From Eledone cirrhosa (Eukaryota), in contig OZ024743.1 in the NCBI GenBank assembly GCA_964016885.1, forward strand, positions 212,722,001-212,786,000: DNA of 64,000 nt, written 5' to 3'. The translations under genes were made by a program, and so were the position numbers. Below, one piece after another: positions 9,282 through 63,167 of this stretch (the first letter of the stretch is position 1; each line of letters starts with the position of its first letter). The notes beneath the pieces are model-generated. The model was not told the DNA's origin, did not search any database, and saw only the letters and a program-made list of their open reading frames with translations.

Positions 9282-9334
9282 GGCATGTCTTTGTATTGTC
9301 CCCTCTTTTGTGCGCCCTTGTGGCAAATAAAGAA
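9282..9334 (+). mobile_element. Extreme 3'-end stub of a related Tx1 element, copy C
   Basis: tttgtattgtcccctcttttgtgcgcccttgtggcaaataaagaa matches the terminal ~50 nt of the other copies and is followed by ATCTATCTCTCTATC. Confidence 0.8.
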
Positions 9335-10285: not shown

Positions 10286-10306
10286 GTAGGTAGAAACAAG
10301 TAGTAA

Positions 10307-17741: not shown

Positions 17742-17870
<129 letters not shown>

Positions 17871-18904: not shown

Positions 18905-18931
18905 ATCTATATATATATATATATATATATA

Positions 18932-19390: not shown

Positions 19391-19551
19391 GTTACAACGA
19401 TGATTGTGACGTTCACTGCGAAAACAGCGGAAGCAAGAATAGCCGAGATGCCATTTTACCAGATGGGACGCCATGTTCATATCCCGATCCAGAATACAAT
19501 GTACATGGTGTATCAAACTTAAAGTTGCATTGTTTCAGAGGGAAGTGTCAG
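19391..19551 (+). CDS. ADAMTS-family exon: Cys-rich domain
   Basis: T-rich acceptor, CAG|GTAAG donor. Phase 1 start, (G)YNDDCDVHCENSGSKNSRDAILPDGTPCSYPDPEYNVHGVSNLKLHCFRGKCQ, matching the ADAMTS CxxxC...DGTPC...CxxGxC pattern. Confidence 0.9.
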
Positions 19552-21890
19552 GTAAGGATGTGTATAATGAAGATTGATCCTCATATTATTTACATCGTAA
19601 TTTTGTTCATTTTTGTGTGGAGATAACAATAGAATGGACAATTGATGGTTGAAGTAGTAGAGTGGTCTATAGATGGTTGAGACAGTAGAGTGGTTTATAT
19701 ATGGTTGAGACAGTAGAGTGGTCTATAGATGGTTGGGACAGTAGAGTGGGCTATAGATAGCTGAAACAATAGAGTGGTCTATAGATGGTTGAAACAATAG
19801 AATGGTCTATAGATGATTGAAGTAGTAGAGTGGTATATAGATGGTTGAGACAGTAGAGTGGTCTATAGATGGTTGAGACAATAGAGTAGTCTATAGATAG
19901 CTGAGACAGTAAAGTGGTCTATAGATGGTTGAGACAGTAGAGTGGTCTATAGATGGTTGAGACAGTAGAGTGGTCTATAGATGGTTGAGACAGTAGAGTG
20001 GTCTATAGATGGTTGAGACAGTAGAGTGGTCTATAGATTGTTGAGACCGTAGAGTGGTCTATAGATGATTGAGACAGTAGAGTGGTCTATAGATGATTGG
20101 GACAATAGAGTGGTCTATAGATGGTTGAGACAATAGAGTGGTCTATAGATGGTTGAGACAGTAGAGTGGTCTATAGATGGTTGAGACAGTAGAGTGGTCT
20201 ATAGATGGTTGAGACAGTAGAGTGGTCTATATATGGTTGAGACAGTAGAGTGGTCTATAGATGGTTGGGACAGTAGAGTGGGCTATAGATAGTTGAAACA
20301 ATAGAGTGGTCTATAGATGGTTGAGACAATAGAGTGGTCTATAGATGATTAAGACAATAGAGTCGTCTATAGATAGCTGAGACAGTAAAGTGGTCTATAG
20401 ATGGTTGAGACAGTAGAGTGGTCTATAGATAGCTGAGATAATAGAGTGGTCTATAGATGGTTGAGACAGTAGAGTGGTCTATAGATGGTTGAGACAATAG
20501 AGTAGTCTATAGATAGCTGAGACAGTAAAGTGGTCTATAGATGGTTGAGACAGTAGAGTGGTCTATAGATGGTTGAGACAGTAGAGTGGTCTATAGATGG
20601 TTGAGACAGTAGAGTGGTCTATAGATGGTTGAGACAGTAGAGTGGTCTATAGATTGTTGAGACCGTAGAGTGGTCTATAGATGATTGAGACAGTAGAGTG
20701 GTCTATAGATGATTGAGACAATAGAGTGGTCTATAGATGGTTGAGACAATAGAGTGGTCTATAGATGGTTGAGACAGTAGAGTGGTCTATAGATGGTTGA
20801 GACAGTAGAGTGGTCTATAGATGGTTGAGACAGTAGAGTGGTCTATATATGGTTGAGACAGTAGAGTGGTCTATAGATGGTTGGGACAGTAGAGTGGGCT
20901 ATAGATAGTTGAAACAATAGAGTGGTCTATAGATGGTTGAGACAATAGAGTGGTCTATAGATGATTAAGACAATAGAGTGGTCTATAGATGGTTGAAGTA
21001 GTAGAGTGGTCTATAGATGGTTGAAGTAGTGGAGTGGTCTATAGATAGCTGAAACAATACAGTGGCCTATAGATGCTTGAGACAGTAGAGTGGTCTATAT
21101 ATGGTTGAGACAGTAGAGTGGTCTATAGATGGTTGCAACAGTAGAGTGGTCTATAGATAGCTGAAACAATAGAGTGGTCTATAGATAGTTGAGACAATAG
21201 AGTGGTCTATAGATGGTTGAGACAGTAGAGTGGTCTATAGATAGTTGACACATTAGAGTGGTCTATAGATGGTTGAGACAATAGAGTGGTCTATAGATGG
21301 TTGAAGTAGTAGAGTGGTCTATAGATGGTTGAAGTAGTGGAGTGGTCTATACATAGCTGAAACAATAGAGTGGTTTATAGATGGTTGGGACAGTAGAGTG
21401 GTCTATAGATGGTTGAGACAGTAGAGTGGTCTATAGATAGTTGAGGCAGTAGAGTGGTCTATAGATGGTTGAGACAGTAGAGTGGTCTATAGATGGTTGA
21501 GACAGTAGAGTGGTCTATATATGGTTGAGACAGTAGAGTGGTCTATATATGGTTGAGACATTAGAGTGGTCTATATATGGGTGAGACATTAGAGTGGTCT
21601 ATAGACAGTTGAGACATTAGAGTGGTCTATAGATGGTTGAGGCAGTAGAGTGGTCTATAGATGGTTGAGACAGTAGAGTGGTCTATAGATGGTTGAGACA
21701 ATAGAGTGGTCTATAGATGGTTGAGACAGTAGAGTGGTCTATAGATGGTTGAGACAGTAGAGTGGTCTATAGATGGTTGAAGTAGTAGAGTGGTCTATAG
21801 ATGGTTGAGACAGTAGAGTGGTCTATAGATGGTTGAGACAGTAGAGTGGTCTATGGATAGCTGAGACAGAAGAGTGGTCTATAGATGGTT

Positions 21891-22058
21891 CCGATCGACT
21901 TGTCCCGGTTCAGCTTAGCCCTTGTAAACCTTTCGTACTCCTCCAGTAAGGTGCCGATCGCCCCGATTTCCGAGGCCATCGACACCATTACTGTTACGTC
22001 ATCGGCGCAGGCCGACACCGATTTCCGCAATCCCGGTTCCACCGGGATGCCCTGCAAC
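21891..22058 (-). mobile_element. 168-bp internal RT fragment of the Tx1 element, piece E
   Basis: LQGIPVEPGLRKSVSACADDVTVMVS...LNRDKSIG; sits at satellite GGTT|GAGAC; no element 3' end. Confidence 0.93.
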
Positions 22059-24044
22059 TTGAGACAATAGAGTGGTCTATAGATAGCTGAGACAGTAGAA
22101 TGGCCTATAAATAGTTGAGACAGTAGAGTGGTCTATGGATGGTTGAGACAGTAGAGTGGTCTATAGATGGTTGAGACAGTAGAGTGGTCTATAGATGGTT
22201 GAAGTAGTAGAGTGGTCTATAGATGGTTGAGGTAGTAGAGTGGTCTATAGATGGTTGAGACAGTAGAGTGGTCTATAGATGGTTGAAGTAGTAGAGTGGT
22301 CTATAGATGGTTGAAGTAGTAGAGTGGTCTATAGATGGTTGAGACAGTAGAGTGGTCTATAGATGGTTGAGACAGTAGAGTGGTCTATAGATAGCTGAGA
22401 CAGTAGAGTGGTCTATAGATAGCTGAGATAATAGAGTGGTCTATAGATGGTTGAGACAGTAGAGTGGTCTATAGATGGTTGAGACAGTAGAGTGGTCTAT
22501 AGATAGCTGAGACAGTAGAGTGGTCTATAGATGGTTGAGACAGTAGAGTGGTATATAGATGGTTGAGACAGTAGAGTGGTCTATAGATGGTTGAGACAGT
22601 AGAGTGGTCTATAGATGGTTGAGACAGTAGAGTGGTGCATAGATGGTTGAAGTAGTAGAGTGGTCTATAGATAGCTGAGACAGTAGAGTGGTCTATAGAT
22701 GGTTGAGACAGTAGAGTGGTCTATAGATGGTTGAGACAGTAGAGTGGTCTATAGATAGTTGAGACAATAGAGTGGTCTATAGATAGCTGAGACATTAGAA
22801 TGGTCTATAGATAGTTGAGACAGTAGAGTGGTCTATGGATGGTTGAGACAGTAGAGTGGTCTATAGATGGTTGAGACAATAGAGTGGTCTATAGATGGTT
22901 GAGACAATAGAGTGGTCTATAGATGGTTGAGACAGTAGAGTGGTCTATAGATAGTTGAGACAGTAGAGTGGTCTAGAGATGGTTGAAGTAGTAGACTGGT
23001 CTATAGATGGTTGAGACAGTAGAGTGGTCTATAGATGGTTGAGACAGTAGAGTGGTCTATAGATAGTTGAGACAGTAGAGTGGTCTAGAGATGGTTGAAG
23101 TAGTAGACTGGTCTATAGATGGTTGAGACAGTAGAGTGGTCTATAGATAGTTGAGACAGTAGAGTGGTCTATAGATGGTTGAAGTAGTAGAGTGGTCTAT
23201 AGATGGTTGAAGTAGTAGAGTGCTCTATAGATGTTTGAGACAATAGAGTGGTCTATAGATGGTTGAAGTAGTAGAGTGGTCTATAGATGGTTGAGACAGT
23301 AGAGTGGTCTATAGATGGTTGAGACAGTAGAGTGGTCTATAGAGGGTTGAAGTAGTAGAGTGGTCTATAGATGGTTAAGACAGTAGAGTGGTCTATAGAT
23401 AGCTGATACAGTAGAGTGTTCTATAGATGGTTGAGACAGTAGAGTGGTCTATAGATGGTTGAGACAGTAGAATGGTCTATAGTTGGTTGAGACAGTAGAG
23501 TGGTCTATAGATAGTTGAGACAATAGAGTGGTCTATAGATAGCTGAGACAGTAGAATGGTCTATAGATAGTGGAGACAGTAGAGTGGTCTATGGATGGTT
23601 GAGACAGTAGAGTGGTCTATAGATGGTTGAGACAGTAGAGTGGTCTATAGATGGTTGAAGTAGTAGAGTGGTCTAGAGATGGTTGAAGTAGTAGAGTGGT
23701 CTATAGATGGTTGAGACAGTAGAGTGGTCTATAGATGGTTGAGACAGTAGAGTGGTGTATCGATAGCTGAGACAGTAGAGTGGTCTATAGATGGTTGAGA
23801 CAATAGAGTGGTCTATAGATGGTTGAGACAATAGAGTGGTCTATAGATGGTTGAGACAATAGAGTGGTCTATATATGGTTGAAGTAGTAGAATGGTCTAT
23901 AGATGTTTGACGTAGTAGAGTGGTCTATAGATGGTTGAGACAGTAGAGTGGTCTATAGATGGTTGAGACAATAGAGTGGTCTATAGATGGTTGAGACAGT
24001 AGAGTGGTCTATAGATAGCTGAGACATTAGAGTGGTCTATAGAT

Positions 24045-26209
24045 ATGTTTCTTTTATTTGCCACCAGGGCATCAAAAGTGGGACAAGTACAATGGGGGGA
24101 GTTTACAAAACAAGGCGTCCTCAATAGGGAGGAGGCAATAACTATATATAAAAAAAAAATAAAATATAACAAAAAATAGAATTATAACAAAATCCTCATA
24201 GAGGATTTTGTTATAAAATATAACAAAAAATAAAATTTATAACAAAATCCTCAATAAAGAGGAGGCGCCTTGGGGGGTCGCACACACCCCCGAAAAAGGT
24301 GTGCAACCCTTTTCCTCAGGAGCACAGAGAGGGGGTGCTCCCTCGTTCCTTCCTCTTTTCCACCTACAGGCTTATGTAGAGAGAAGGCCCATTCACACGG
24401 GCCATTCTCGCCACTTTCACCCACCTTTCATAAAAACGACTGGGGTGGAGCACCTCTCTCTCCATCCTGATCCTTCTTCCGAAATGATATCGGAAGAAAC
24501 GGACCAGTTGTTGGCCAGAGAGAAAGGTGCCTGACCTCATTCCTTTCAGACGCGTCCACCATACAACTTCTTTCACCATGGCTATTATGCACAGAAACAC
24601 CGCCTCTCCTTCATCTTTGAAGGGGGGAGGCGGCTTGATCATTACAATAGACTCGGTGGTCAACCGGATCGGTCCCACCCTTGACAGCAGTTGTTCGACA
24701 TAGCCCCACAGATCGGCTACGTCCGAGCAGTGTACCAATTCGTGTGCAACGGTTTCCTCGTCGCACACGCATCTGGGACAGATCTTTTTGGCGGGGTCCC
24801 TACCCGGGCGCTCGTGTCTGTAGAGCTTTTCTCGAACGGGTAGAGCCCCTCTGTAGCACTGCCAGGCCAGGGACTTCTGGAAGTTGTCCATAGGTCCCGG
24901 GCTGAATGTCCTACCGAACAGGCTGGCCAGTTCGTCCTCCTCCATGTCTAGGGCTTCTCCGAGGGCGTCGTCGCACCTGCTGCGTACCAGCCCTCTATAG
25001 AATGTTGCGGTGGAGTCTCCACTGATAACCGGATCCGCCTGCCAGAGGGCGGTGAGCGCCTGGGCACACTCAGTGTTCCAGGCGCCCAGTTTTCTCGGTC
25101 TTTGCTTGACCCAGGATTGCAGCTCGGTGAGTGAGACGAGTCTGGGAAAGGTTCGTCTCACAAACGAGGCCCACACCGGTTGACCGGTGAGGAATACGTA
25201 GAGGTGCCGTAGCCTTAATGCGTGTTTACGCATCATTAGCCACGGCATCCCCAGCCCTCCTTTCGAAGGGTGTTGACAGCAGATGGATCTCCTCACCATA
25301 GGAGCCCGCCTCTTCCAAAGGAATTGGAAGAGCGCGCGCTCCATCTTGGTGAGGGTTTCCCTTGGGCAGGGCACTACGGTCAGGCGGTAGTAGATGACGG
25401 ACGCTATATAGGTGTTCGCCAACTCCGCCCGACCTTTCAGGGATAGTTTGCAACTGGCCCACTTCTGGGTCAGGGCAAACACCCTGTTCGTAACCTCCAC
25501 CCAGTTTTTCTCCTTTCTATTCCTATCCGCAGCTAGAACCTTACTAAATTCTATCGAGACTACTCAAATCTCTCTCTTTAGAGATACCCACCACCTGCTG
25601 TTGACGATCGCTCCAGTCAATCGTTCCTTAACTAACGTACTAATCCGATCCCTATAGGCTCTACTTGCCGGCGAGGACAAGTTGAGCTTCCAGTAACCGG
25701 GGCCCTGTCTATGCATTCTATCAAGGTTGACCATGCAGGTCACCAACTTGTGGTCTAATAGCCAACCATGAGCATTTCTGGACAACTTAAAAAGTCCCTG
25801 TCCTTATTTCTAACTAAAAATCTATCTAGGTACGACCTAGATGATCCGCTGCAATTTGACCAAGACCAGGTTTGCACCGTCGGAAAATCTAGTCGAAATC
25901 TATCGGCCAGGTCAAATCGGCCGAGTAACCCCTTGAGGCTGTTGCACCCCTCTCTATCGGGACATGCCCCTGCATAGTCCCAACGTGCATCCAGGATACC
26001 ATTCCAATCCCCCACTAAAAGCAGGGAACGGGACGTCCCTAGAAAAGACTCCAGACGCTGGAAAAAGTCGGGCCGCTCTGTCCCAAACGGGGCATATGCG
26101 GCTACCAGCCTAAAGGCTCCACCTTCACCACTGCCAAGGTCCAGCACCACCAGTCGACCCCCTGGGTCCAAGGGAACTATCTGTTTGCAAGGCCCATATT
26201 TTTTTTTGC
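24045..26209 (-). mobile_element. Tx1 copy F: 5'-truncated in the APE domain, RT domain internally deleted
   Basis: APE motifs (AAYAP, VGDWNG, GPGYWKLN) joined near 25512 to the post-RT region; open C-terminal ORF 24364-25500; TSD TCTATAGAT (24036-24044 and 26210-26218). Confidence 0.95.
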
Positions 26210-32200: not shown

Positions 32201-33258
32201 AGTAGAGTGGTCTATAGATGGTTGAGACACTAGAGTGGTCTATAGATGGTTGAGACAGTAGAGTGGTCTATAGTTGGTTGAGACAATATAGTGGTCTATA
32301 GATGGTTAAAGTAGGAGAGTGGTCTATAGATGGTTGAGACAATAGTGTGGTCTATAGTGGTTGAGACAGTAGAGTGGTCTATATATGACTGAGACAATAG
32401 AGTGGTCTATAGATGGTTGAGACATTAGAGTGGTCTATAGATGGTTGAGACAATAGAGTGGTCTATAGATATCTGAGACAATAGAGTGGTCTATGGATGG
32501 TTGGGGCAGTAGTGTCGTCTATAAATGGTTGAGACTGTAGAGTGGTCTATAGATGGTTGAAGTAGTAGAGACGTCTATGGATGGTTGAGACAATAGAGTG
32601 GTCTATAGATGGTTGAAGTAGTACCGTGGTCTATAGATGGTTGAGACAATAGAGTGGTCTATAGATGGTTGAGACAATAGAGTGGTCTATAAATGGTTGA
32701 GACAATAGAGTGGTCTATAGATTGTCGAGACAGTAGAGTGGTCTATAGATGTTTGACACAATAGAATGGTCTATTGATAACTGAGACAGTAGAGTGGTCT
32801 ATGGATGTTTGAGACAGGAGAGTGGTCTATAGATGGTTGAAGTAGTAAAGTGGTCTATAGATGGTTGAGACAGTAGAGTGGTCTATAGATGGTTGAAACA
32901 GTAGAGTGGTCTATAGATGGTTGAGACAATAGAGTGGTCTATAGATAGATGATACAGTAGAGTGGTTTATAGATGGTTGAAGTAGTAGAGTGGTCTATAG
33001 ATGGTTGAGACACTAGAGTGGTCTATAGATGGTTGAGATAGTAGAGTTGTCTATAGATGGTTGAGACAATAGAGTGGTCTATTGATGGTTGGGATAGTAG
33101 AGTTGTCTATAGATGGGTGAGACAGTAGAATGTTCTATAGAAGGTTGAGACAATGGAGTGCTCTATAGATGGTTGAGACAGTAGAGTGGTCTATAAATGG
33201 TTGAGACAATAGAGTGGTGTATAGATGGTCGAGACAGTGGAGTGGTCTATATATGGTT

Positions 33259-35497
33259 AACGGGAGAATTCCCTGTACTGTGACCAAGGGCGTAGTCACG
33301 CTAGTGAGGAAGGACGAGAACAAGGGGGACGAAATAAGTAACTTCAGGCCCATAACATTGCTAAATACAGAGTTACAGATTTTGCCCAAGGTGCTAGCAC
33401 AGAGGTTGGCGCTTGTCGTGGGCAACCTGGTGGGAGATGCGCAGACATGCGCTATCCCGTCCAGGTCCATCCATGACAACCTCCACCTCATGCGATACAT
33501 CATAGAGAGGGTTGGGAACGAACCCGGCTTTGGTGGGGCTCTGATCAACTTGGATCAATCTAAGGCGTTCGATAGGGTCGACCATGGTTACCTGGATGCG
33601 GTGCTAGCGGCGGCAGGCTTCGGACCCGTTTTCAGGGGCTGGATCACTGCTATGCACAGCAGCCGCATCTGCTCTAGGGTCAAGGTGAACGGCTACCTCT
33701 CGGAGCCGTTCAAAATCGCGCGGTCCATCCGACAAGGGTGCCCTCTCTCCTCCCTTCTGTATGTGTTGACTCTCGAGCCACTACTGCGGAAGTTGGAGTT
33801 GTTGCAGAGCATCCCTTTGGAACCGGGATTGCGGAAAGCGGTGTCGGCCTACGCCGATGACGTGACAGTAATGGTGTCGACGGCCTCCGAAATCGAGGCG
33901 GTCGGCACCTTACTGGAGGAGTACGAAAAGTTCTAAGGGGCTAAGCTGAACCGGGACAAGTCGATCGGTTTGCAACTCGGCACGTGGAGGGGCAGACCGA
34001 TGCCCTCCGATAGCGTCGTCGGACGCTGGACGGAGGGCCCGGTGAAGTTGCTCGGGGTCTGGTTCGGACCGGACCTCCAGGTGGAGAAAAACTGGGCGGA
34101 GGTTACGAACAGGGTGTTTGCACTGACCCAGAAGTGGGCCAGTTGCAAACTATCCCTGAAAGGTCGGGCGGAGGTGGCGAACACCTACATAGCGTCCGTC
34201 ATCTACTACCGCCTGACCGTAGTGCCCTGCCCAAGGGAAACCCTCACCAAGATGGAGCGCGCGCTCTTCCAATTCCTTTGGAAGAGGCGGGCTCCTATGG
34301 TGAGGAGATCCATCTGCTGTCAACACTCTTCGAAAGGAGGGCTGGGGATGCCGTGGCTAATGATGCGTAAACACGCATTAAGGCTACGGCACCTCTACGT
34401 ATTCCTCACCGGACAACCGGTGTGGGCCTCGTTTGTGAGACGAACCTTTCCCAGACTCGTCTCACTCACCGAGCTGCAATCCTGGGTCAAGCAAAGACCG
34501 AGAAAACTGGGCGCCTGGCACACTGAGTGTGCCCAGGCGCTCACCGCCCTCTGGCAGGCGGATCCGGTTATCAGTGGAGACTCCACCGCAACATTCTATA
34601 GAGGGCTGGTACGCAGCAGGTGCGACGACGCCCTCGGAGAAGCCCTAGACATGGAGGAGGACGAACTGGTCAGCCTGTTCGGTAGGACATTCAGCCCGGG
34701 ACCTATGGACAACTTCCAGAAGTCCCTGGCCTGGCAGTGCTACCGAGGGGCTTTACCCGTTCGAGAAAGGCTCTACAGTCACGGGCGCCCGGGTAGGGAC
34801 CCCGCCAAAAAGATCTGTCCCAGATGCGTGTGCGACGAGGAAACCGTTGCACACGCATTGGTACACTGCTCGGGCGTAGCCGATCTGTGGGGCTATGTCG
34901 AACAACTGCTGTCAAGGGTGGGACCGATCCGGTTGACCACCGAGTCTATTGTAATGATCAAGCCGCCTCCCCCCTTCAAAGATGAAGCAGAGGCGGTGTT
35001 TCTGTGCGTAATAGCCATGGCGAAAGAGGTTGTATGGTGGACGCGTCTGAAAGGACTGAGGTCGGGCACCTTTCTCTCTGGCCAACAACTGGTCCGTTTC
35101 TTCCGATATCATTTCGGAAGAAGGATCAGGATAGAGAGAGAGGTGCTGCACCCCAGCCGTTTCTATGAAAGATGGGTGAAAGTGGCGAGAATGGCCCGTG
35201 TGAATGGGCCTTCACTCTACATCAGACTATAGGTGAGGAAGATGAAAGACCAAGGGAGCACGCCTTCTCTGTGCTCCTGAGGAGAAGGGTTGCACACTTT
35301 TTTCGGGGGTGTGTGCGACCCCCCAAGGCGCCTCCTCTCTATTGAGGATTTAGTTAAAAATTTTATTTTTTGTTATATCTTATTTTATTTTTATATTTTG
35401 TTATTGCCTCCTCCTTATTGAGGACGCCTTTTTGTGTAAACTCCCCCCTTTGTACTTGTCCCACTTTTGATGCCCTAGTGGCAAATAAAAGAAATAT
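33259..35497 (+). mobile_element. Tx1 copy G: 5'-truncated, RT plus C-terminus in one frame with a single stop
   Basis: FRPITLLN, KAFDRVDH, RQGCPLS, AYADDV; in-frame TAA at 33934-33936; TSD ATATATGGTT (33249-33258 and 35498-35507). Confidence 0.96.
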
Positions 35498-38400: not shown

Positions 38401-38699
38401 AGTGATCTATAGATGGTTGAAGTAGTAGAGTGGTCTATAGATGGTTAAGACAGTAGAGTGGTCTATAGATGGTTGAGACAATAGAGTGGTCTATAGATGG
38501 TTGAGACAATAGAGTGGTCTATAGACGGTTGAGGCAATAGAGTGGTCTATAAATGGTTGAGACAGTAGAGTGGTCTATAGATGGTTGAGACAACAGAGGG
38601 GTCTATAGATGGTTGAGTCAATAGAGTGGTATATAGATGGTTGAGACAATAGAGTGGTCTATAGTTCGTTGAAGTAGTAGAGTGGTCTATAGATGGTTG

Positions 38700-44600: not shown

Positions 44601-47600
44601 AGATCGTTGAAGTAGTAGAGTGGTCTATAGATGGTTAAGACAGTAGAGTGGTCTATAGATGGTTGAGACAATAGAGTGGTCTATAGATGGTTGAGACAAT
44701 AGAGTGGTCTATAGACGGTTGAGACAATAGAGTGGTCTATAGATGGTTGAGACAGTAGAGTGGTCTATAGATGGTTGAGACACTAGAGTGGTCTATAGAT
44801 GATTGAGACAGTAGAGTGGTATATAGATGGTTGAGACAGTAGAGTGGTCTATAGATGTTTGAGACAGTAGAGTGTTGTATAGATGGTTGAGATAATAGAA
44901 TGGTCTATAGATGGTTGAGACAATAGAGTGGTCTATAGATGGTTGAGACAGTAGAGTGGTCTATATATGGTTGAGACAGTAGTGTGGTCTACAGATGATT
45001 GAGACAGTAGAGTGGTCTATAGATGGTTGAGATAATAGAGTGGTCTATAGATGGTTGAGACAATAGAGTGGTCTATAGATGGTTGAGACAGTAGAGTGGT
45101 CTATATATGGTTGAGACAGTAGAGTGGTCTATAGATGGTTGAGACAATAGAGTGGTCTATAGATAGCTGAGACAGTAAAGTTGTCTATAGATGGTTGAGA
45201 CAGTAAAGTGGTCTATAGATGGTTGAGACAGTAGAGTGGTCTACAGATGGTTCAGACAATAGAGTAGTCTATAAATGTTTGAGACATTAGAGTGGTCTAT
45301 AGATGGTTGAAGTAGTAGAGAGGTCTATAGATGGTTGAGACAATAGAGTGGTCTATAGATGGTTGAGACAATAGAGTAGTCTATAGGTGGTTGAGACAAT
45401 AGAGTAGTCTATAGATAGCTGAGACAGTAAAGTGGTCTATAGATGGTTGAGACAGTAGAGTGGTCTATAGATGGTTGAGACAGTAGAGTGGTCTATAGAC
45501 TGTTGAGACAGTAGAGTGGTCTATAGATGATTGAGACAGTAGAGTGGTCTATAGATGATTGAGACAATAGAGTGGTCTATAGATAGTTGAGACAATAGAG
45601 TGGTTTTATAGATGGATGAAGTAGTAGAGTGGTCTATAGATGGTTGAAACGGTAGAGTGGTCTATATAAGGTTGAGAGAGTAGAGTAGTCTATAGATGTT
45701 TGAGACAGTAGAGTGGTCTATAGATGGTTTAGAAAATAGAGTGCTCTATAGATATTTGAGATAGTAGAGTGGTCTATAGATGGTTGAAGTAGTAGAATGT
45801 TCTATAGATAGTTGAGACAGTAGAGTGGTCTATAGATGGTTGAGACAATAGTGTGGTCTATAGATGGTTGAAACCGTAGAGTGGTCTATATATGGTTGAG
45901 CCAGTAGAGTGGTCTATAGATGATTGAGACAATAGAGTGGTCTATAGATGGTTGAGACAGTAGAGTGGTCTATAGATGGTTGAGACAAGAGAGTGCTCTA
46001 TAGATGGTCGAGACAGAAGAGTGCTCTATAGATGGTTGAAGTAGTAGAATGGTCAATAGATGGTTGAAGTAGTAGAGTTGTCTATAGATCGTTGAGACAA
46101 AAGATTGGTCTATAGATGGTTGAAGTATTAGAGTGGTCTATATATGGGTGCGACAGTCGAGTGGCCTGTAGATGGTTGAAGTAGTAGAGTGATCTATAGA
46201 TCGTTGAAGTAGTAGAGTGGTCTATAGATGGTTAAGACAGTAGAGTGGTCTATAGATGGTTGAGACAATAGAGTGGTCTATAGATGGTTGAGACAATAGA
46301 GTGGTCTATAGACGGTTGAGACAATAGAGAGGTCTATAGATGGTTGAGACAGTAGAGTGGTCTACAGATGGTTGAGACAGTAGAGTGGTCTATAGATGAT
46401 TGAGACAGTAGAGTGGTCTATAGATGGTTGAGACAGTAGAGAGGTCTATAGATGTTTGAGACAGTAGAGTGGTCTATAGATGGTTGAGATAATAGAGTGG
46501 TCTATAGATGGTTGAGACAATAGAGTGGTCTATAGATGGTTGAGACAGTAGAGTGGTCTATATATGGTTGAGACAGTAGTGTGGTCTACAGATGATTGAG
46601 ACATTAGAGTGGTCTATAGATGGTTGAGATAATAGAGTGGTCTATAGATGGTTGAGACAATAGAGTGGTCTATAGATGGTTGAGACAGTAGAGTGGTCTA
46701 TATATGGTTGAGACAGTAGCGTGGTCTACAGATGGTTGAGACAATAGAGTAGTCTATAAATGTTTGAGACAGTAGAGTGGTCTATAGATGGTTGAGACAG
46801 TAGAGTGGTCTATAGATGGTTGAAGTAGTAGAGAGCTCTATAGATGGTTGAGACAATAGAGTGGTCTATAGATGGTTGAGACAATAGAGTGGTCTATATA
46901 TGGTTGAGACAATAGAGTGGTCTATAGATAGTTGAGACAGTAAAGTGGTCTATAGATGGTTGAGACAATAGGGTGGTCTATAGATGATTGAGACAGTAGA
47001 GTGGTCTATAGATGGTTGAGACAGTAGAGTGGTCTATAGATTGTTGAGACAGTAGAGTGGTCTATAGATGATTGAGACAGTAGAGTGGTCTATAGATGAT
47101 TGAGACAATAGAGTGGTCTATAGATAGTTGAGACAATAGAGTGGTCTATAGATGATTGAGACAATAGAGTGGTCTATAGATAGTTGAGACAATAGAATGG
47201 TCTATAGATAGTTGAGACAGTAGAGTGGTCTATAGATGGTTGAAACGGTAGAGTGGTCTATAGATGGTTGAGACAGTAGAGTGGTCTATAGATTGTTGAG
47301 ACAGTAGAGTGGTCTATAGATGTTTGAGACAATAGAGTGGTCTATAGATGGTTGAGACAGTAGAATGGTCAATACATGGTTGAAGTAGTAGAGTGGTCTA
47401 TAGATGGTTGAGACAGTAGAGTGGTCTATAGATGGTTGAGACAATAGAGTGGTCTATAGATGGTTGAGACTGTTGAGTGGTCTATAGATTGTTGAGACAA
47501 TAGAGTGGTCTATAGATGGTTGAGACAATCGAGTGGTCTATAGATGTTTGAGACAATAGAGTGGTTTATAGATCGTTGAAGTAGTAGAGTGGTCTATAGA
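38700..47600. repeat. Higher-order repeat: three near-identical 2,969-bp units (106 monomers + 1 bp)
   Basis: Rare variant AGTGGTTTTATAGATGGATG at 39661, 42630 and 45599; TATATATGGGTGCGAC at 40201, 43170 and 46139. All spacings are 2,969. Outer boundaries approximate. Confidence 0.92.
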
Positions 47601-48973
47601 TGGTTGAGACAGTAGAGTGGTCTATAGATGGTTGAGACAGTAGAGTGGTCTATAGATGGTTGAGAAAATAGAGTGGTCTATAGATGTTTGAGACAGTAGA
47701 GTGTTCTATAGATGGTTGTGACAATAGAGCGGTATATAGATGGTTGAGACAGTAGAGTGGTCTATACATGGTTGAGACAGTAGAGTGGTCTATAGATGGT
47801 TGAGACATTAGAGTGGTCTATAGATGGTTGAGACACTAGAGTGGTCTATAGATGGTTGAAGTAGTAGAGTGGTCTATAGATGGTTGAGACAATAGAGTGG
47901 TCTATAGATCGTTGAAGTAGTAGAGTGGTCTATAGAAGGTTGAGAGAGTAGAGTAGTCTATATATGTTTGAGACAGTAGAGTGGTCTATAGATATTTGAG
48001 ATAGTAGAGTGGTCTATAGATGGTTTAGAAAATAGAGTGCTCTATAGATGTTTGAGATAGTAGAGTGGTTTATAGATGGTTGAAGTAGTAGAATGTTCTA
48101 TAGATGGTTGAGACAGTAGAGTGGTCTATAGATGGTTGAGACAATAGTGTGGTCTATAGATGGTTGAAACCGTAGAGTGGTCTATATATGGTTGAGCCAG
48201 TAGAGTGGTCTATAGATGATTGAGACAATAGAGTGGTCTATAGATGGTTGAGACAGTAGAGTGGTCTATAGATGGTTGAGACAATAGAGTGGTCTATAGA
48301 TGGTTGAGACAGTAGAGTGGTCTATAGATGGTTGAGACAAGAGAGTGCTCTATTAATGGTCGAGACAGAAGAGTGCTCTATAGATGGTTGAAGTAGTAGA
48401 ATGGTCAATAGATGGTTGAAGTAGTAGAGTGGTCTATAGATCGTTGAGACAAAAGATTGGTCTATAGATGGTTGAAGTATTAGAGTGGTCTATATATGGG
48501 TGAGACAGTCGAGTGGCCCGTAGATGGTTGAAGTAGTAGAGTGATCTATAGATGGTTGAAGTAGTAGAGTGGTCTATAGATGGTTGAGACAATAGAGTGG
48601 TCTATAGATGGTTGAGACAATAGAGTGGTCTATAGATGGTTGAGACAATAGAGTGGTCTATAGACGGTTGAGACAATAGAGTGGTCTATAGATGGTTGAG
48701 ACAGTAGAGTGGTCTATAGATGGTTGAGACAGTAGAGTGGTCTATAGATGGTTGAGACAATAGAGTGGTCTATAGACGGTTGAGACAATAGAGTGGTCCA
48801 TATATGGTTGAGACAGTAGAGTGGTCTATAGATGGTTGAGACAGTAGAGTGGTCTATAGATGGTTGAGACAGTAGAGTGGTCTATAAATGATTGAGACAG
48901 TAGAGTGGTCTATAGATGGTTGAGACAGTAGAGTGGTCTATAGATGGTTGAGACATTAGAGTGGTCTATAGAT

Positions 48974-50505
48974 GAGTTTCTTTTATTTGCCACTAGGGCA
49001 TCAAAAGTGGGACAAGTACAAAGGGGGGAGTTTACACAAAAAGGCGTCCTCAATAAGGAGGAGGCAATAACAAAATATAAAAATAAAATAAGACATAACA
49101 AAAAATAAAATTTTTAACAAAATCCTCAATAGAGAGGAGGCGCCTTGGGGGGTCGCACACACCCCCGAAAAAAGTGTGCAACCCTTTTCCTCAGGAGCAC
49201 AGAGAGGGGGTGCTCCCTCGTTCCTTCCTCTTTTCCACCTACAGGCTTATGTAAAGAGAAGGCCCATTCACACGGGCCATTCTCGCCACTTTCACCCACC
49301 TTTCATAAAAACGACTGGGGTGCAGCACCTCTCTCTCCATCCTGATCCTTCTTCCGAAATGATATCGGAAGAAACGGACCAGTTGTTGGCCAGAGAGAAA
49401 GGTGCCTGACCTCAGTCCTTTCAGACGCGTCCACCATACAACCTCTTTCGCCATGGCTATTACGCACAGAAACACCGCCTCTGCTTCATCTTTGAAGGGG
49501 GGAGGCGGCTTGATCATTACAATAGACTCGGTGGTCAACCGGATCGGTCCCACCCTTGACAGCAGTTGTTCGACATAGCCCCACAGATCGGCTACGCCCG
49601 AGCAGTGTACCAATGCGTGTGCAACGGTTTCCTCGTCGCACACGCATCTGGGACAGATCTTTTTGGCGGGGTCCCTACCCGGGCGCCCGTGTCTGTAGAG
49701 CCTTTCTCGAACGGGTAAAGCCCCTCGGTAGCACTGCCAGGCCAGGGACTTCTGGAAGTTGTCCATAGGTCCCGGGCTGAATGTCCTACCGAACAGGCTG
49801 ACCAGTTCGTCCTCCTCCATGTCTAGGGCTTCTCCGAGGGCGTCGTCGCACCTGCTGCGTACCAGCCCTCTATAGAATGTTGCGGTGGAGTCTCCACTGA
49901 TAACCGGATCCGCCTGCCAGAGGGCGGTGAGCGCCTGGGCACACTCAGTGTGCCAGGCGCCCAGTTTTCTCGGTCTTTGCTTGACCCAGGATTGCAGCTC
50001 GGTGAGTGAGACGAGTCTGGGAAAGGTTCGTCTCACAAACGAGGCCCACACCGGTTGTCCGGTGAGGAATACGTAGAGGTGCCGTAGCCTTAATGCGTGT
50101 TTACGCATCATTAGCCACGGCATCCCCAGCCCTCCTTTCGAAGGGTGTTGACAGCAGATGGATCTCCTCACCATAGGAGCCCGCCTCTTCCAAAGGAATT
50201 GGAAGAGCGCGCGCTCCATCTTGGTGAGGGTTTCCCTTGGGCAGGGCACTACGGTCAGGCGGTAGTAGATGACGGACGCTATATAAGTGTTCGCCACCTC
50301 CGCCCGACCTTTCAGGGATAGTTTGCAACTGGCCCACTTCTGGGTCAGCGCAAACACCCTGTTCGTAACCTCCGCCCAGTTTTTCTCCACCTGGAGGTCC
50401 GGTCCGAACCAGACCCCGAGCAACTTCACCGGGCCCTCCGTCCAGCGTCCGACGACGCCATCAGAGGGCATCGGTCTGCCCCTCCACGTGCCGAGTTGCA
50501 AACCG
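48974..50505 (-). mobile_element. Tx1 copy H: 5'-truncated, open 420-aa ORF2 C-terminus
   Basis: Nearly identical in protein to copy G; short TSD AGAT (48970-48973 and 50506-50509), supported by an empty paralogous site near 53137. Confidence 0.96.
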
Positions 50506-53500
50506 AGATGGTTGAGACAGTAGTGTGGTCTACAGATGATTGAGACAGTAGAGTGGTCTATAGATGGTTGAGATAATAGAGTGGTCTATAGATGGTTGAG
50601 ACAATAGAGTGGTCTATAGATGGTTGAGACAGTAGAGTGGTCTACAGATGGTTGAGACAATAGAGTAGTCTATAAATGTTTGAGACAGTAGAGTGGTCTA
50701 TATATGGTTGAGACAGTAGAGTGGTCTACAGATGGTTGAGACAATAGAGTAGTCTATAAATGTTTGAGACAGTAGAGTGGTCTATAGATGGTTGAAGTAG
50801 TAGAGAGGTCTATAGATGGTTGAGACAGTAGAGTGCTTTATACATTGTCGAGACAATAGAGTGGTCAATAGATGGTTGAGACAGTAGAGTGGTCTATAGA
50901 TTGTTGAGACCGTAGAGTGGTCTATAGATGATTGAGACAGTAGAGTGGTCTATAGATGATTGAGACAATAGAGTGGTCTATAGATGGTTGAGACAATAGA
51001 GTAGTCTATAGGTCGTTGAGACAATAGAGTAGTCTATAGATAGCTGAGACAGTAAAGTGGTCTATAGATGGTTGAGACAGTAGAGTGGTCTATAGATGGT
51101 TGAGACAGTAGAGTGGTCTATAGATGGTTGAGACAGTAGAGTGGTCTATAGATGGTTGAGACAGTAGAGTGGTCTATAGATGGTTGAGACATTAGAGTGG
51201 TCTATAGATGGTTGAGACAGTAGAGTGGTATATAGATTGTTGAGACCGTAGAGTGGTCTATAGATGATTGAGACAGTAGAGTGTTCTATAGATGATTGAG
51301 ACAATAGAGTGGTCTATAGATGGTTGAGACAATAGAGTGGTCTATAGATCGTCGAAGTAGTAGAGTGGTCTATAGATGGTTGAGACAGTAGAGTGGTCTA
51401 TAGATGGTTGAGACAGTAGAGTGGTCTATAGATGGTTGAGACAGTAGAGTGGTCTATAGATTGTTGAGACCGTAGAGTGGTCTATAGATGATTGAGACAG
51501 TAGAGTGGTCTATAGATGATTGAGACAATAGAGTGGTCTATAGATGGTGGAGACAATAGAGTGGTCTATAGATGGATGAAGTAGTAGAGTGGTCTATAGA
51601 TGGTTGAAACGGTAGAGTGGTCTATAGATGGTTGAGACATTAGAGTGGTCTATATATGGTTGAGACAATAGAGTGGTCTATAGATGGTTTAGACAGTAGA
51701 ATGGTCAATAGATGGTTGAAGTAGTAGAGTGGTCTATAGATGGTTGAGACAGTAGAGTGGTCTATAGATGGTTGAGACAGTAGAATGGTCAATAGATGGT
51801 TGAAGTAGTAGAGTGGTCTATAGATGGTTGAGACAGTAGAGTGGTCTATAGATGGTTGAGACAGTAGAGTGGTCTATAGATGGTTGAGACAATAGAGTGG
51901 TCTATAGATGGTTGAGACAGTAGAATGGTCAATAGATGGTTGAAGTAGTAGAGTGGTCTATAGATGGTTGAGACAGTAGAGTGGTCTATAGATGGTTGAG
52001 ACAAAAGAGTGGTCTGTAGATCGTTGAAGTAGTAGAGTGGTATATTGATGGTTGAGACAATCGAGTGGTCTATAGATGGTTGAGACAGTAGAGTGGTCTA
52101 TAGATGGTTGAGACAATAGAGTGGTGGATAGATGGTTGAGACAACAGAGTGGTCTATAGATGGTTGAGACAATAGAGTGGTATATAGATGGTTGAGACAG
52201 TAGAGTGGTCTATAGATGGTTAAGACAGTAGAGTGGTCTATAGATGGTTGAGACAATAGAGTGGTCTATAGATCGTCGAAGTAGTAGAGTGGTCTATAGA
52301 TGGTTGAGACAGTAGAGTGGTCTATAGGTGGTTGAGACAGTAGAGTGGTCTATAGATGGTTGAGACAGTAGAGTGGTCTATAGATGGTTGAGACAGTAGA
52401 GTGGTCTATAGATGGTTGAGAAAATAGAGTGGTCTATAGATGTTTGAGACAGTAGAGTGGTCTATAGATGGTTGTGACAATAGAGTGGTATATAGATGGT
52501 TGAGACATAGAGTGGTCTATACATGGTTGAGACAGTAGAGTGGTCTATAGATGGTTGAGACATTAGAGTGGTCTATAGATGGTTGAGACACTAGAGTGGT
52601 CTATAGATTGTTGAGACATTAGAGTGGTCTATAGCTGGTTGAGACAATAGAGTGGTCTATAGTTGGTTGAGACAATACAGTGGTCTATATATAGTTTAGA
52701 CAATAGAGTGGTCTATAGATGGTTGAAGTAGTAGAGTGGTCTATATATGGTTGAGACAGTAGAGTGGTCTATAGATGGTTGAGAGAGTAGAGTGGTCTAT
52801 AGATGGTTGAGACAATAGAGTGGTCTATAGATGGTTGAGACAATAGAGTGGTCTATAGATGGTTGAAGTATTAGAGTGGTCTATAGATGGTTGAGACAGT
52901 AGAGTGGTCTATAGATGGTTGAGACAATAGAGTGGTCTATAGACGGTTGAGACAATAGAGTGGTCCATATATGGTTGAGACAGTAGAGTGGTCTATAGAT
53001 GGTTGAGACAGTAGAGTGGTCTATAGATGGTTGAGACAGTAGAGTGGTCTATAGATGATTGAGACAGTAGAGTGGTCTATAGATGGTTGAGACAGTAGAG
53101 TGGTCTATAGATGGTTGAGACATTAGAGTGGTCTATAGATGGTTGAGACAGTAGTGTGGTCTACAGATGATTGAGACAGTAGAGTGGTCTATAGATGGTT
53201 GAGATAATAGAGTGGTCTATAGATGGTTGAGACAATAGAGTGGTCTATAGATGGTTGAGACAGTAGAGTGGTCTACAGATGGTTGAGACAATAGAGTAGT
53301 CTATAAATGTTTGAGACAGTAGAGTGGTCTATATATGGTTGAGACAGTAGAGTGGTCTACAGATGGTTGAGACAATAGAGTAGTCTATAAATGTTTGAGC
53401 CAGTAGAGTGGTCTATAGATGGTTGAAGTAGTAGAGAGGTCTATAGATGGTTGAGACAGTAGAGTGCTTTATACATTGTCGAGACAATAGAGTGGTCTAT

Positions 53501-59500: not shown

Positions 59501-60760
59501 AGACAGTAGAGTGGTCTATAGATGGTTGAGACAGTAGAGTGGTCTATAGATGGTTGAGACATTAGAGTGGTCTATAGATGGTTGAGACAGTAGTGTGGTC
59601 TATAGATGGTTGAGATAATAGAGTGGTCTATAGATGGTTGAGACAATAGAGTGGTCTATAGATGGTTGAGACAGTAGAGAGGTCTACAGATGGTTGAGAC
59701 AATAGAGTAGTCTATAGATGGTTGAGACAGTAGAGAGGTCTACAGATGGTTGAGACAATAGAGTAGTCTATAAATGTTTGAGACAGTAGAGTGGTCTATA
59801 TATGGTTGAGACAGTAGAGTGGTCTACAGATGGTTGAGACAATAGAGTAGTCTATAAATGTTTGAGACAGTAGAGTGGTCTATAGATGGTTGAAGTAGTA
59901 GAGAGGTCTATAGATGGTTGAGACAGTAGAGTGCTTTATACATTGTCGAGACAATAGAGTGGTCTATAGATGGTTGAGACAGTAGAGTGGTCTATAGATT
60001 GTTGAGACCGTAGAGTGGTCTATAGATGATTGAGACAGTAGAGTGGTCTATAGATGATTGAGACAATAGAGTGGTCTATAGATGGTTGAGACAATAGAGT
60101 AGTCTATAGGTCGTTGAGACAATAGAGTAGTCTATAGATAGCTGAGACAGTAAAGTGGTCTATAGATGGTTGAGACAGTAGAGTGGTCTATAGATGGTTG
60201 AGACAGTAGAGTGGTCTATAGATGGTTGAGACAGTAGAGTGGTCTATAGATGGTTGAGACAGTAGAGTGGTCTATAGATGGTTGAGACATTAGAGTGGTC
60301 TATAGATGGTTAAGACAGTAGAGTGGTCTATAGATTGTTGAGACCGTAGAGTGGTCTATAGATGATTGAGACAGTAGAGTGTTCTATAGATGATTGAGAC
60401 AATAGAGTGGTCTATAGATGGTGGAGACAATAGAGTGGTCTATAGATGGATGAAGTAGTAGAGTGGTCTATGGATGGTTGAAACGGTAGAGTGGTCTATA
60501 GATGGTTGAGACATTAGAGTGGTCTATATATGGTTGAGACAATAGAGTGGTCTATAGATGGTTTAGACAGTAGAATGGTCAATAGATGGTTGAAGCAGTA
60601 GAGTGGTCTATAGATGGTTGAGACAGTAGAGTGGTCTATAGATGGTTGAGACAGTAGAATGGTCAATAGATGGTTGAAGTAGTAGAGTGGTCTATAGATG
60701 GTTGAGACAGTAGAGTGGTCTATAGATGGTTGAGACAGTAGAGTGGTCTATAGATGGTTG
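50506..60760. repeat. Second higher-order repeat family with variable unit length
   Basis: Landmark GAGTGCTTTATACATTGTCG at 50831, 53462, 56709 and 59929 (spacings 2631, 3247, 3220; about 94, 116 and 115 monomers). Confidence 0.9.
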
Positions 60761-63167
60761 AGACAATTGAGTGGTCTATAGATGGTTGAGACAGTAGAGT
60801 GGTCTATAGCTGGTTGACACAGTAGAGTGGTCTATAGATGGTTGAGACAGTAGGGTGGTCTATAGATGGTTGAAGTAGTAGAGAGGTCTATAGATGGTTG
60901 AGATAGTAGAGTGGTCTATAGCTGGTTGAGACAGTAGAGTGGTCTATAGATGGTTGAGACAGTAGCGTAGTCTATAGATGGTTGAGACAGTAGAGTGGTC
61001 TATAGATGGTTGAGACAGTAGAGTGGTCTATAGATGGTTGAGACAGTAGGGTGGTCTATAGATGGTTGAAGTAGTAGAGAGGTCTATAGATGGTTGAGAT
61101 AGTAGAGTGGTCTATAGCTGGTTGAGACAGTAGAGTGGTCTATAGATGGTTGAGACAGTAGCGTAGTCTATAGATGGTTGAGACAGTAGAGTGGTCTATA
61201 GATGGTTGAGACAATAGAGTGGTCTATAGTAGGTTGAGACAATAGAGTGGTCTATAGATGGTTGATACAGTAGAGTGTTCTATAGATGGTTGAGACAGTA
61301 GAGTGGTCTATAGCTGGTTGAGACAGTAGAGTGGTCTATAGATGGTTGAGACAGTAGAGTAGTCTATAGATGGTTGAGACAGTAGAGTGGTCTATAGATG
61401 GTTGAGACAGTAGAGTGGTCTATAGCTGGTTGAGACAGTAGAGTGGTCTATAGATGGTTGAGACAATAGAGTGGTCTATAAATGGTTGAGACAGTAGAGT
61501 GGTCTATACATGGTTGAGACAGTAGAGTGGTCTATAGATGGTTGAGACAGTAGAGTAGTCTATAGATGGTTGAGACAGTAGAGTGGTCTATAGATGGTTG
61601 AGACAATAGAGTGGTCTATAGATGGTTGATACAGTAGAGTGGTCTATAGATGGTTGAGACAATAGAGTGGTCTATAGATGGTTGATACAGTAGAGTGGTC
61701 TATAGATGGTTGAGACAATAGAGTGGTCTATAGATGGTTGAGACAGTAGCGTAGTCTATAGATGGTTGAGACAGTAGAGTGGTCTATAGATGGTTGAGAC
61801 AGTAGAGTGGTCTATAGATGGTTGAGACAGTAGGGTGGTCTATAGATGGTTGAAGTAGTAGAGAGGTCTATAGATGGTTGAGATAGTAGAGTGGTCTATA
61901 GCTGGTTGAGACAGTAGAGTGGTCTATAGATGGTTGAGACAGTAGCGTAGTCTATAGATGGTTGAGACAGTAGAGTGGTCTATAGATGGTTGAGACAATA
62001 GAGTGGTCTATAGTAGGTTGAGACAATAGAGTGGTTTATAGATGGTTGATACAGTAGAGTGTTCTATAGATGGTTGAGACAGTAGAGTGGTCTATAGCTG
62101 GTTGAGACAGTAGAGTGGTCTATAGATGGTTGAGACAGTAGAGTAGTCTATAGATGGTTGAGACAGTAGAGTGGTCTATAGATGGTTGAGACAGTAGAGT
62201 GGTCTATAGCTGGTTGAGACAGTAGAGTGGTCTATAGATGGTTGAGACAATAGAGTGGTCTATAAATGGTTGAGACAGTAGAGTGGTCTATACATGGTTG
62301 AGACAGTAGAGTGGTCTATAGATGGTTGAGACAGTAGAGTAGTCTATAGATGGTTGAGACAGTAGAGTGGTCTATAGATGGTTGAGACAATAGAGTGGTC
62401 TATAGATGGTTGATACAGTAGAGTGGTCTATAGATGGTTGAGACAATAGAGTGGTCTATAGATGGTTGAGACAGTAGAGTGTTCTATAGATGGTTGAGAC
62501 AGTAGAGTGGTCTATAGATGGTTGAGACAATAGAGTGGTCTATAGATGGTTGAGACAGTAGAGTGGTCTATAGATGGTTGAGACAATAGAGTGCTCTATA
62601 GATGGTTGAGACAGTAGAGTGGTCTATAGATGGTTGAGACAGTAGAGTGGTCTATAGATGGTTGAGACAATAGAGTGGTCTATAGATGGTTGATACAGTA
62701 GAGTGTTCTACAGATGGTTGAGACAGTAGAGTGGTCTATAGCTTGTTGAGACAGTAGAGTGGTCTATAGATGGTTGAGACATTAGAGTAGTCTATAGATG
62801 GTTGAGACATTAGAGTGGTCTATAAATGGTTGAGACATGAGAGTGGTGTATACGGGATATGGTAGAACCTGTAGCGGTGGAGACACCCTGCTTTCTTGGC
62901 CACCGGACCACATCCCTATTCACTGTTATCGGAGCGGAATTGGCCGCCCGCAGGTGCGAGCCCCACGAGGTGGATTAGCTGTTATAGCGGATATCCCTCA
63001 TCGTACTCTGGGGCAATGCATTCCTTATCCTGTTGGCCGGGTCCAGAGGTGCGGGCGGGGCGGGGGGGGGGGGGGTAATTAGTTGATAGTGGAGGATACT
63101 TGTTCGGATGTCACTTTCACACATGCATCGAATGTCTTTTTAACTGTTGTATAAAAAATTGTTCCTT

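Follow-up and report, generated by a model that had tools for sequence, protein, structure and literature searches.

An intronic minisatellite of Eledone cirrhosa as a likely incidental target of a TATCT/TATAT-selective L1/Tx1-group LINE

In a stretch of 64,000 nucleotides of the Eledone cirrhosa genome (the whole stretch analysed, hereafter the window), an array of a 28-bp minisatellite is interrupted by pieces of one LINE group, which raises the question of whether the array attracts the element or was struck by chance. A preliminary description held that the array multiplies the element's target about 1,300-fold and suggested that it might function as a sink for the element, or as a safe haven, comparable to R elements in rDNA or SART/TRAS. 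We consider it likely that this single-locus intronic minisatellite, with its three independent inserts and one fragment, is an incidental target in a gene region that is often hit.

The array comprises 1,309 units of the 28-mer (37,129 bp of repeat sequence) and takes up 97% of a 44.7-kb intron; the exon to its left is spliced across it, in agreement with the intronic position claimed earlier. The 28-mer occurs at a single locus, in three paralogous arrays, two of which (9.8 and 2.7 kb) lie outside the window; its 241 genome matches comprise 188 in the window, 41 in the second array and 12 assigned by subtraction to the third. There are exactly four interruptions of at least 25 bp, each matching one L1/Tx1-group LINE, which bears out the statement that pieces of one family are the sole interruptions. 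The array is young only in part: exact duplicates of at least 200 bp, which point to recent expansion, cover 51% of its span. The window contains no N bases, and the folding of four-unit hairpins gave no signal (z=0.05).

Table 1. Positions of the array, its inserts, the left-flank LINE pieces and the host exons in window coordinates (TSD, target-site duplication)
Feature	Position	Strand	Description
Flank copy	2174..3615	+	Same family, 92-96% to array inserts, inside (TATC)n run; absent from paralogue
Sister-family copy	3631..9268	+	Full-length, frameshifted; ORF1 with zinc knuckle, EN, RT; 82% to i3
3'-end fragment	9291..9335	+	45 bp, same LINE group; closes three-piece cluster
Host exon stretch	10125..10286	+	Thrombospondin type 1 domain, PF00090, E 8.5e-6
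Older 3' piece	18533..18906	+	Same LINE group, 73-78%, then (TA)n
Host exon	19391..19551	+	Cysteine-rich, coding; splices over array to exon ~210 bases past window end
Array	19626..62852	+	28-bp minisatellite, period 28; TRF, unit count, intron mapping
f1	21891..22058	-	168-bp internal RT fragment, without 3' end or real TSD
i2 TSD, left copy	24036..24045	+	10 bp; right copy 26210-26219
i2	24046..26209	-	LINE insert, 5'-truncated within endonuclease
i3 TSD, left copy	33248..33258	+	11 bp; right copy 35497-35507
i3	33259..35496	+	5'-truncated LINE insert, orientation opposite to i2/i4
Repeated block	38700..47455	+	2,969 bp, three occurrences with long exact matches; exact-match analysis
i4	48975..50506	-	5'-truncated LINE insert, C-terminal frame open, about 420 aa

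Three of the four pieces (i2, i3 and i4) have TSDs of satellite sequence, that of i4 being only 4-5 bp long, and long open frames (399, 243+431 and about 420 aa, respectively), as the preliminary description had it. In i2, which occupies a minority unit with TATCT, a 1.3-kb internal deletion took out the RT and left the C-terminal frame; i3, located in a minority TATAT unit, codes for an RT with one in-frame stop and for a zf-RVT domain, and both copies of its TSD carry the same diagnostic variant, which occurs in ~4% of units. The i4 insert lies in a consensus unit, whose CATCT is one mismatch from the target. One dispersed copy is 99.5% identical to i3, dispersed copies are 99.9% identical to i4, and f1 belongs to a third sub-lineage, being 97% identical to dispersed copies that are only 90-93% like i4; the four pieces represent at least three sub-lineages. 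All four are 5'-truncated or internal, all lack ORF1, and an intact EN-RT frame is present in none. Three of the four TPRT-type junctions of the three arrays fall in the same unit register: the terminal insert of the third array has its register and strand in common with i2 and i4, i3 lies in the opposite orientation in a variant unit, and f1 lies elsewhere. In element coordinates, the ends of f1 and i4 abut within 4 bp.

The element is an L1-group (L1/Tx1) non-LTR retrotransposon, all L1-group features tested being present. An APE endonuclease is N-terminal in ORF2 (PF03372, E 2e-4 and 6e-5 in partial frames, just under the curated cut-off), and the endonuclease piece aligns with the N-terminal part of a homologue 1,145 aa long. 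The RT (RVT_1, E 6e-24), accompanied by a C-terminal zf-RVT (E 1e-5), is nearer L1 than R2 (human LINE-1 ORF2p, E 2e-18, versus R2, E 2e-12). A CCHC zinc knuckle pattern, matched by no Pfam entry, was read directly in a 352-aa ORF1 frame (3889-4947), and family copies show 5' truncations with TSDs, as members of the L1 group do. The Tx1 label is presumptive, being taken from architecture and behaviour rather than from RT phylogeny. The closest named protein matches come from Argonauta (60-66%); named Tx1 proteins are absent from the protein matches listed, and a PDB search with the endonuclease piece returned zero matches.

The element is target-selective, as had been proposed, inserting at TATCT or TATAT, mostly within (TATC)n and (TA)n runs. 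Among the first 30 listed of its 3,620 exact 3' ends genome-wide, the flank begins with TATCT in 25, TATAT in 4 and TACCT in one; with 29 of 30 flanks starting TATCT or TATAT, the family is target-specific as the accessible part of PMC4494074 defines it (one sequence type in more than 20% of flanks). Across the genome, TATCTATCT follows 2,320 of the 3' ends and a TA run follows 398, and of 14 copies with a visible 5' end, 9 have a microsatellite, (TA)n or (TATC)n, on that side too. Five empty paralogous sites were examined, and all three interpretable ones contain TATCT.

The supposed multiplication of the target, given earlier as ATCTAT, disappears when the actual motifs are counted: TATCT and TATAT occur 122 and 249 times in the array, densities no higher than background. 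Because the consensus unit has CATCT instead, TATCT, found 122 times across 1,309 units, reaches only 3.29 per kb in the array, compared with 3.15 in the local flank and 3.21 in a 200-kb background, and motif-matrix odds are 3.9, 3.6 and 6.6, respectively, the background values being rough figures from 20 fixed 10-kb stretches. The near-target CATCTATAGA is dense in the array, where CATCT occurs 26 times per kb versus 1.7 in the background, and TATCTAT is 2.5x as frequent as in the background and 5x as frequent as in the local flank. Elements followed by ATCTATAGA number three genome-wide, two of them in the array, and none of ~7,400 ATCTATAGAC sites outside arrays matches the strict ATCTATAGA pattern. 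The TATCTAT and ATCTATAGA figures speak against a purely incidental target.

The left flank (1-19620) had been contrasted with the array as crowded with other debris. Coding remnants of Helitron and RTE type are indeed present there, together with a multi-copy SINE-like repeat and with hairpin repeats, these family labels being our assumption from motifs rather than repeat-library matches, yet the LINE group of the array accounts for four further pieces that had been overlooked (Table 1). The SINE, Helitron and RTE pieces sit in stretches common to the paralogue and are therefore older than the duplication; the LINE cluster does not, the sister-family copy, like its neighbour, being absent from the paralogue, although such paralogue-specific segments are not polarised between insertion and deletion. 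Most other recent changes at the locus adjoin TA-type runs. The host locus is a tandemly repeated TSP1/ADAMTS-like gene, "ADAMTS-like" being our presumptive label; the ADAMTS amino-acid motifs considered matched no exon.

These observations are best accommodated by a recently active L1/Tx1-group LINE that would hit the gene region often and would have struck the array incidentally. Two of the three window inserts chose minority units with the TATCT/TATAT motif. The APE endonuclease would nick at that motif, and target-primed reverse transcription would then give 5'-truncated copies with TSDs of 4-11 bp. The f1 fragment may have been patched into a break or may be the remnant of a deletion; its derivation as the displaced 5' part of i4 was rejected because the 29 copies nearest f1 share only 89-93% identity with i4, whereas a copy with 99.5% identity to i4 has 91% to f1. 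Other TE families would be missing from the array because half of it stems from recent block duplication and TA-type runs are lacking.

Exact 3' ends number 7 across 494 kb, every one of them inside a 286-kb repeated block, and the non-array part of the locus already stands at 14x the genome mean (17 per Mb versus 1.2 genome-wide). A modest true attraction, in which dense near-target CATCTATAGA or array chromatin raises insertion 2-5x over the locus, is the strongest competitor, and we judge it unlikely. It would fit the choice of a consensus CATCT unit by i4, the single register described above, the presence in the array of two of the 25 elements followed by ATCTATAG and the occurrence of the element in other TATCT-bearing minisatellites as well; moreover, three inserts stand out more given that half of the array is too recent to have been exposed for long. 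The arrays carry 60-80 3' ends per Mb (3.5-4.6x the local flank), and some counts give Fisher and Poisson values near 0.01-0.1: local Poisson P is 0.025-0.13 once f1 and array ends are counted, and Fisher P for the family mix of array versus flank is 0.006-0.12, varying with the counting of flank events, although numbers are small throughout and the window was chosen for its array. However, array sequence, which makes up 17% of the block, holds three of the seven locus 3' ends (P=0.11, not significant), the excess of the array over its own locus (2-3.5x) is likewise not significant, and CATCT starts none of the 30 sampled 3' ends. Of the other 28-mer arrays, a search for which had been proposed earlier, the 9.8-kb paralogue has no internal insert and the third carries one at its end. 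Copies are also absent from a control array of 67.6 kb that contains 2,111 TATCT, ten times the target density, and from 60 kb of a further control array.

A broader proposal seems to us doubtful: that the expressed tandem TSP1/ADAMTS-like gene is a hot spot of an undescribed TATCT-targeting LINE, that minisatellite near-targets add several-fold attraction, and that expanding VNTRs steer LINEs into fast-evolving genes. Three young copies at the locus, nearly identical to one another, lie less than 90 kb apart; a local burst from a single source, with locus copies as one clade, is not supported, since the tree shows 7 label changes, as few as in 15 of 500 shuffles, which indicates weak clustering (62 rows, after removal of 4 identical rows and of one diverged locus copy that failed the length/identity filter). 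A locus-level hot spot, if true, would inform on what beyond sequence steers these elements.

R1/R2 and SART/TRAS elements are nearly confined to a multicopy array that the host maintains, where full-length copies are kept. The present array resembles those systems in sequence-directed insertion into a tandem array, perhaps with a partly fixed register, and differs in the thousands of dispersed copies, the use of both array orientations and the lack of a complete array copy. That it is a sink or safe haven of this kind is very improbable, even though it is interrupted by this LINE group alone, the TSDs consist of repeat sequence and element density is ~60x the genome mean, with a Poisson P of 2e-5 if the genome is taken as uniform. 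The uniform genome is the wrong null because the family is clustered (over 84 Mb, 19 of 99 gaps are below 25 kb versus 2.9 expected, and 5 triplets each fit into 43 kb). In the comparison inside and outside arrays suggested earlier, element density per kb is far above the genome mean, and the density of true targets equals background. Of the 3,620 exact 3' ends, 3 (0.08%) lie in the array, which therefore cannot be a sink; no array piece is complete, with ORF1 or intact EN+RT in 0 of 4, so it is no safe haven; and the preferred target is far from present in every unit. The one-locus confinement of the repeat, the two orientations and the four flank pieces also argue against it. The strong landing-pad form is refuted by the 3/3,620 share, the target densities and the empty, bigger and far more target-rich 67.6-kb array. 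TE interruptions were found in none of six other arrays checked, five of them 6-40 kb long; long TE-free arrays are common in the genome. Three paralogous arrays, empty paralogous sites and the target-rich control form a natural test of target multiplication, and show that target-like words alone do not turn a tandem array into a landing pad.

An assembly artefact, or one insert amplified together with the array, is hardly credible: long arrays are difficult to assemble, another array does show co-amplification (two copies of 1,726 bp that share a 5' end), and no contig of one run or RAD read from three other samples spans the i3 5' junction, which is uninformative and proves nothing, yet orientation, 5' end and sub-lineage vary among the inserts, each is nearer to dispersed copies than one event predicts, the i3 TSD is diagnostic and the window is free of N.

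Target classes that include R1/R2 in rDNA and SART/TRAS in telomeric repeats are set out in the accessible part of PMC4640811, which also describes YURE insertion in U2-derived satellites; satellite-linked Tx1 families are marked 'Sat' in the Fig. 3 legend of PMC4494074. As in those satellite-linked cases, as far as the accessible text describes them, a non-LTR element is inserted here in satellite repeats bearing its own target; unlike them, the repeat is a one-locus intronic minisatellite with less than 0.1% of copies and is not the main target. Closer parallels are the Tx1 families with microsatellite targets, namely Kibi at (TC)n, Koshi at (TTC)n and the crocodilian families at (TTCC)n/(TTTC)n, as given in the accessible parts of PMC4494074 and PMC3812793. 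They have in common with the present family an APE-type non-LTR organisation, a preference for a short microsatellite motif, dispersal, 5' truncation and TSDs. In contrast, the target here is TATCT/TATAT and loose, single motifs in unique DNA and minisatellite units are used, the host is a cephalopod, and the Tx1 placement does not come from comparison with named families. Microsatellite-targeting LINEs are an already known kind, of which this family is a further member. No description of a TATCT/TATAT target for a LINE family was found in the literature open to search, that is, outside subscription papers, Repbase and the supplements of PMC4494074. The TATCT/TATAT target is now defined for a LINE family that is large and has recently been active in an octopus-like genome. 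The accessible parts of the Octopus vulgaris account (PMC13282606) name no target motif, and its main text does not contain the word 'satellite'; they report 13 recently active families of L1-Tx1 repeats with 421 insertions, recently active L1-Tx1-type LINEs of an octopus genome like those described here.

The array forms a single tract of 28-bp period at 19626-62852 (TRF), comprising 1,309 units over 37,129 bp in five repeat segments with 1.6-2.4 mismatches per unit. A k-mer mask identified exactly four interruptions of at least 25 bp, designated f1, i2, i3 and i4 from left to right, and all four match one LINE group, confirming the core observation of the preliminary description. The only part of the window represented in a 2,201-base contig (run X4) is the exon at 19391-19551, after which the contig continues in an exon ~210 bases past the window end. 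Because the contig splices these exons together, the array lies in a 44.7-kb intron, of which it makes up 97%; the gene is expressed and contains a TSP1 domain. The intronic position of the array, proposed earlier, is thereby borne out.

The array occupies a single genomic locus. A 33-base probe yielded 241 genome matches, 188 of them in the window. A second array, 9.8 kb long and 120 kb upstream, accounts for 41, and the other 12 are consistent with a third, of 2.7 kb, that lies 100 kb downstream. Each of the three arrays precedes the same exon in tandem gene-region copies that are ~96% identical, and the 28-mer repeat predates the gene duplication. Exact duplicates of at least 200 bp take up 51% of the window array, including one 2,969-bp block present three times. 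Its history is one of an old seed and recent expansion, so that the youth ascribed to the array applies to the expansion but not to the repeat itself.

LINE pieces interrupting the 28-bp array (TSD, target site duplication; RT, reverse transcriptase)
Piece	Coordinates	Content	TSD
f1	21891-22058	168-bp internal fragment of a third sub-lineage, without 3' end	no real TSD
i2	24046-26206 (k-mer mask)	RT lost via a 1.3-kb deletion	10 bp
i3	33259-35496	RT with a stop	11 bp
i4	48975-50506 (48976-50505 in the k-mer mask)	last 1.5 kb of the element	just 4-5 bp

None of the four pieces is a complete copy, and truncation is evident. As i3 and i4 are 99.5-99.9% and i2 98% identical to dispersed copies, and f1 belongs to a different sub-lineage, the pieces represent independent events. 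TSDs made of satellite sequence, as previously described, are present at i2, i3 and i4; however, since an apparent TSD in a tandem array can equal deletion of the unit remainder, only that of i3 is diagnostic, with the same variant, of 4% frequency, on both sides. In element coordinates, f1 has its 3' end no more than 4 bp from the 5' end of i4 despite their different sub-lineages; a fragile site or chance may lie behind this. At 3631-9268 lies a full-length relative in which an ORF1 with a CCHC knuckle is followed by an endonuclease, an RT and a C-terminal zinc-binding motif. The element RT is closer to human LINE-1 ORF2p than to R2, and among named proteins those of Argonauta and a cuttlefish are closest. 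We call the element a member of the L1/Tx1 group, Tx1 being the label that we presume to apply.

Copies were counted by an exact 27-base 3'-end motif, which gave 3,620 ends genome-wide and three in the array. Among the first 30 copies listed, the next five bases were TATCT in 25, TATAT in four and TACCT in one; TATCTATCT follows 2,320 of the ends and a TA run 398. Where the 5' end is visible (14 copies), the microsatellite lies on that side as well in nine, and TATCT occupies all three interpretable empty paralogous sites (five examined), so that TATCT is the target, present before insertion, and not the tail alone. The APE endonuclease domain would nick at TATCT or TATAT, with target-primed reverse transcription probably following. 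In head-to-tail clusters at 2165-9339 of the window and at G000:C1:42266032-42269583, new copies lie inside the (TATC)n run of an earlier copy, an apparent case of self-targeting.

The consensus 28-mer carries CATCT, one mismatch from TATCT. Minority TATCT units were used by i2 and by an insert ending a paralogous array, a minority TATAT unit by i3, and the consensus unit by i4 only; minority target units make up ~10% of the array and received three of the four inserts (P ~0.003). Per kb, the array, the local flank and the background (200-kb sample) contain 3.29, 3.15 and 3.21 copies of TATCT and 2.07, 0.42 and 0.82 of the 7-mer TATCTAT, respectively. Array TATCT is therefore near background density and the 7-mer at most 2.5-5-fold up, which removes the ~1,300-fold target multiplication formerly envisaged.

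Selective colonisation of the array was retained only in part. Element density reaches 81 per Mb in the array versus 1.2 per Mb in a uniform genome (P 2e-5), but the excess fades against its own locus. The family is clustered, with 19 of 99 gaps below 25 kb versus 2.9 expected and five triplets within 43 kb on the 84 Mb listed, or ~180 genome-wide by scaling. In the 494 kb around the window, all seven exact 3' ends fall inside a 286-kb repeated block, whose density outside arrays is 17 per Mb, or 14-fold the genome mean; three of the seven lie in the array, itself 17% of the block (P=0.11). Rates from paralogue-specific events give P 0.12-0.30 for three inserts and 0.035-0.13 with f1. The best control, a 67.6-kb 27-mer array chosen independently of the element, contained no element copies despite 2,111 TATCT. 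Alongside these results, a modest attraction of the element to the array appears unlikely, although it would accord with the presence in the window array of two out of the three elements that precede ATCTATAGA and of two out of the 25 that precede ATCTATAG, with a family mix in the arrays unlike that of the flank (Fisher P 0.006-0.12, varying with the count), and with the element's presence in other TATCT-bearing minisatellites, themselves located via the element. Frequent hitting of the gene region, perhaps via germline accessibility or redundancy, probably accounts for the inserts, and other families are probably missing through array youth and the absence of TA runs. Another 28-mer array (G000:C1:45733562-45743285) holds two or three same-family inserts at TATCT-like units. 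A 26-mer array (G000:C28:61424993-61435449) holds two 1,726-bp element copies with identical 5' ends, one insert duplicated along with the array.

The contrast drawn with the left 19.6 kb was likewise only partly sustained. SINE-, Helitron- and RTE-like crowding is present, but because these stretches are common to the downstream paralogue it is mostly older debris, and the same LINE group is represented there by four pieces. Of the paralogue-specific segments in the flank, the largest belongs to this group, whose cluster at 2165-9339 is absent from the downstream paralogue. Two aligned copies (213 kb) yielded 42 paralogue-specific segments, seven of them with the LINE group (~11 pieces); among 25 others of at least 300 bp, 15 carry a terminal run of TA, CA or TAA type. 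The array contains no TA run of eight bases. Absence of other TE families from it has a chance P of 0.04-0.21, assuming 9-18 insertions and with array youth not factored in, and six further arrays of 2.7-40 kb have zero interruptions. A GIY-YIG remnant, which we take to be Penelope-like, adjoins the 9.8-kb array on its left. Inverted hairpin duplications at 12739-13273 and 17233-17722 (self-complementarity 93% and 99%) lie beside TA runs, inside or overlapping paralogue-specific segments. Minisatellite arrays occupy 12.5% and microsatellites 10.8% of the 200-kb sample, and two of 20 background stretches were all array.

The element behaves like the microsatellite-targeting Tx1 families Kibi and Koshi and those of crocodilians (PMC4494074, PMC3812793). 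Satellite-associated non-LTR families are also published (Fig. 3 legend of PMC4494074; YURE, PMC4640811), and active L1-Tx1 families are reported from Octopus vulgaris (PMC13282606). Microsatellite-targeting LINEs of this type are thus already known; the TATCT target is the part for which we found no description in the literature, and the supplements of PMC4494074 may list one. Features that define rDNA- or telomere-resident elements are lacking in the present element, and the suggested likeness to R-elements or SART/TRAS is very unlikely to hold.

The 286-kb block (G000:C4:212620299-212906000) is a gene region repeated in tandem, with an offset of ~150 kb, ~96% identity and a partial third copy. 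Its paralogous 28-mer, 24-mer, 48/50-mer and 104-mer arrays differ up to 16-fold in length between copies. The block includes three LINE copies, 99.6-99.9% identical, in a span of 90 kb, and 208 kb of adjacent DNA has no exact 3' ends. The third array is ended by an older sub-family insert (G000:C4:212889679-212890289) at a TATCT variant unit, where the right part of the array and ~260 bp of flank are gone. Compared with the paralogue at G000:C4:212877000-212887100, the exons at 2009-2127 and 19391-19551 are 84% and 92% identical in DNA and 71% and 83% in protein, while five intron samples reach 96.5-100% and three other exons 95-99%; the two divergent exons are a hint of diversifying selection on a tandem TSP1/ADAMTS-like gene.
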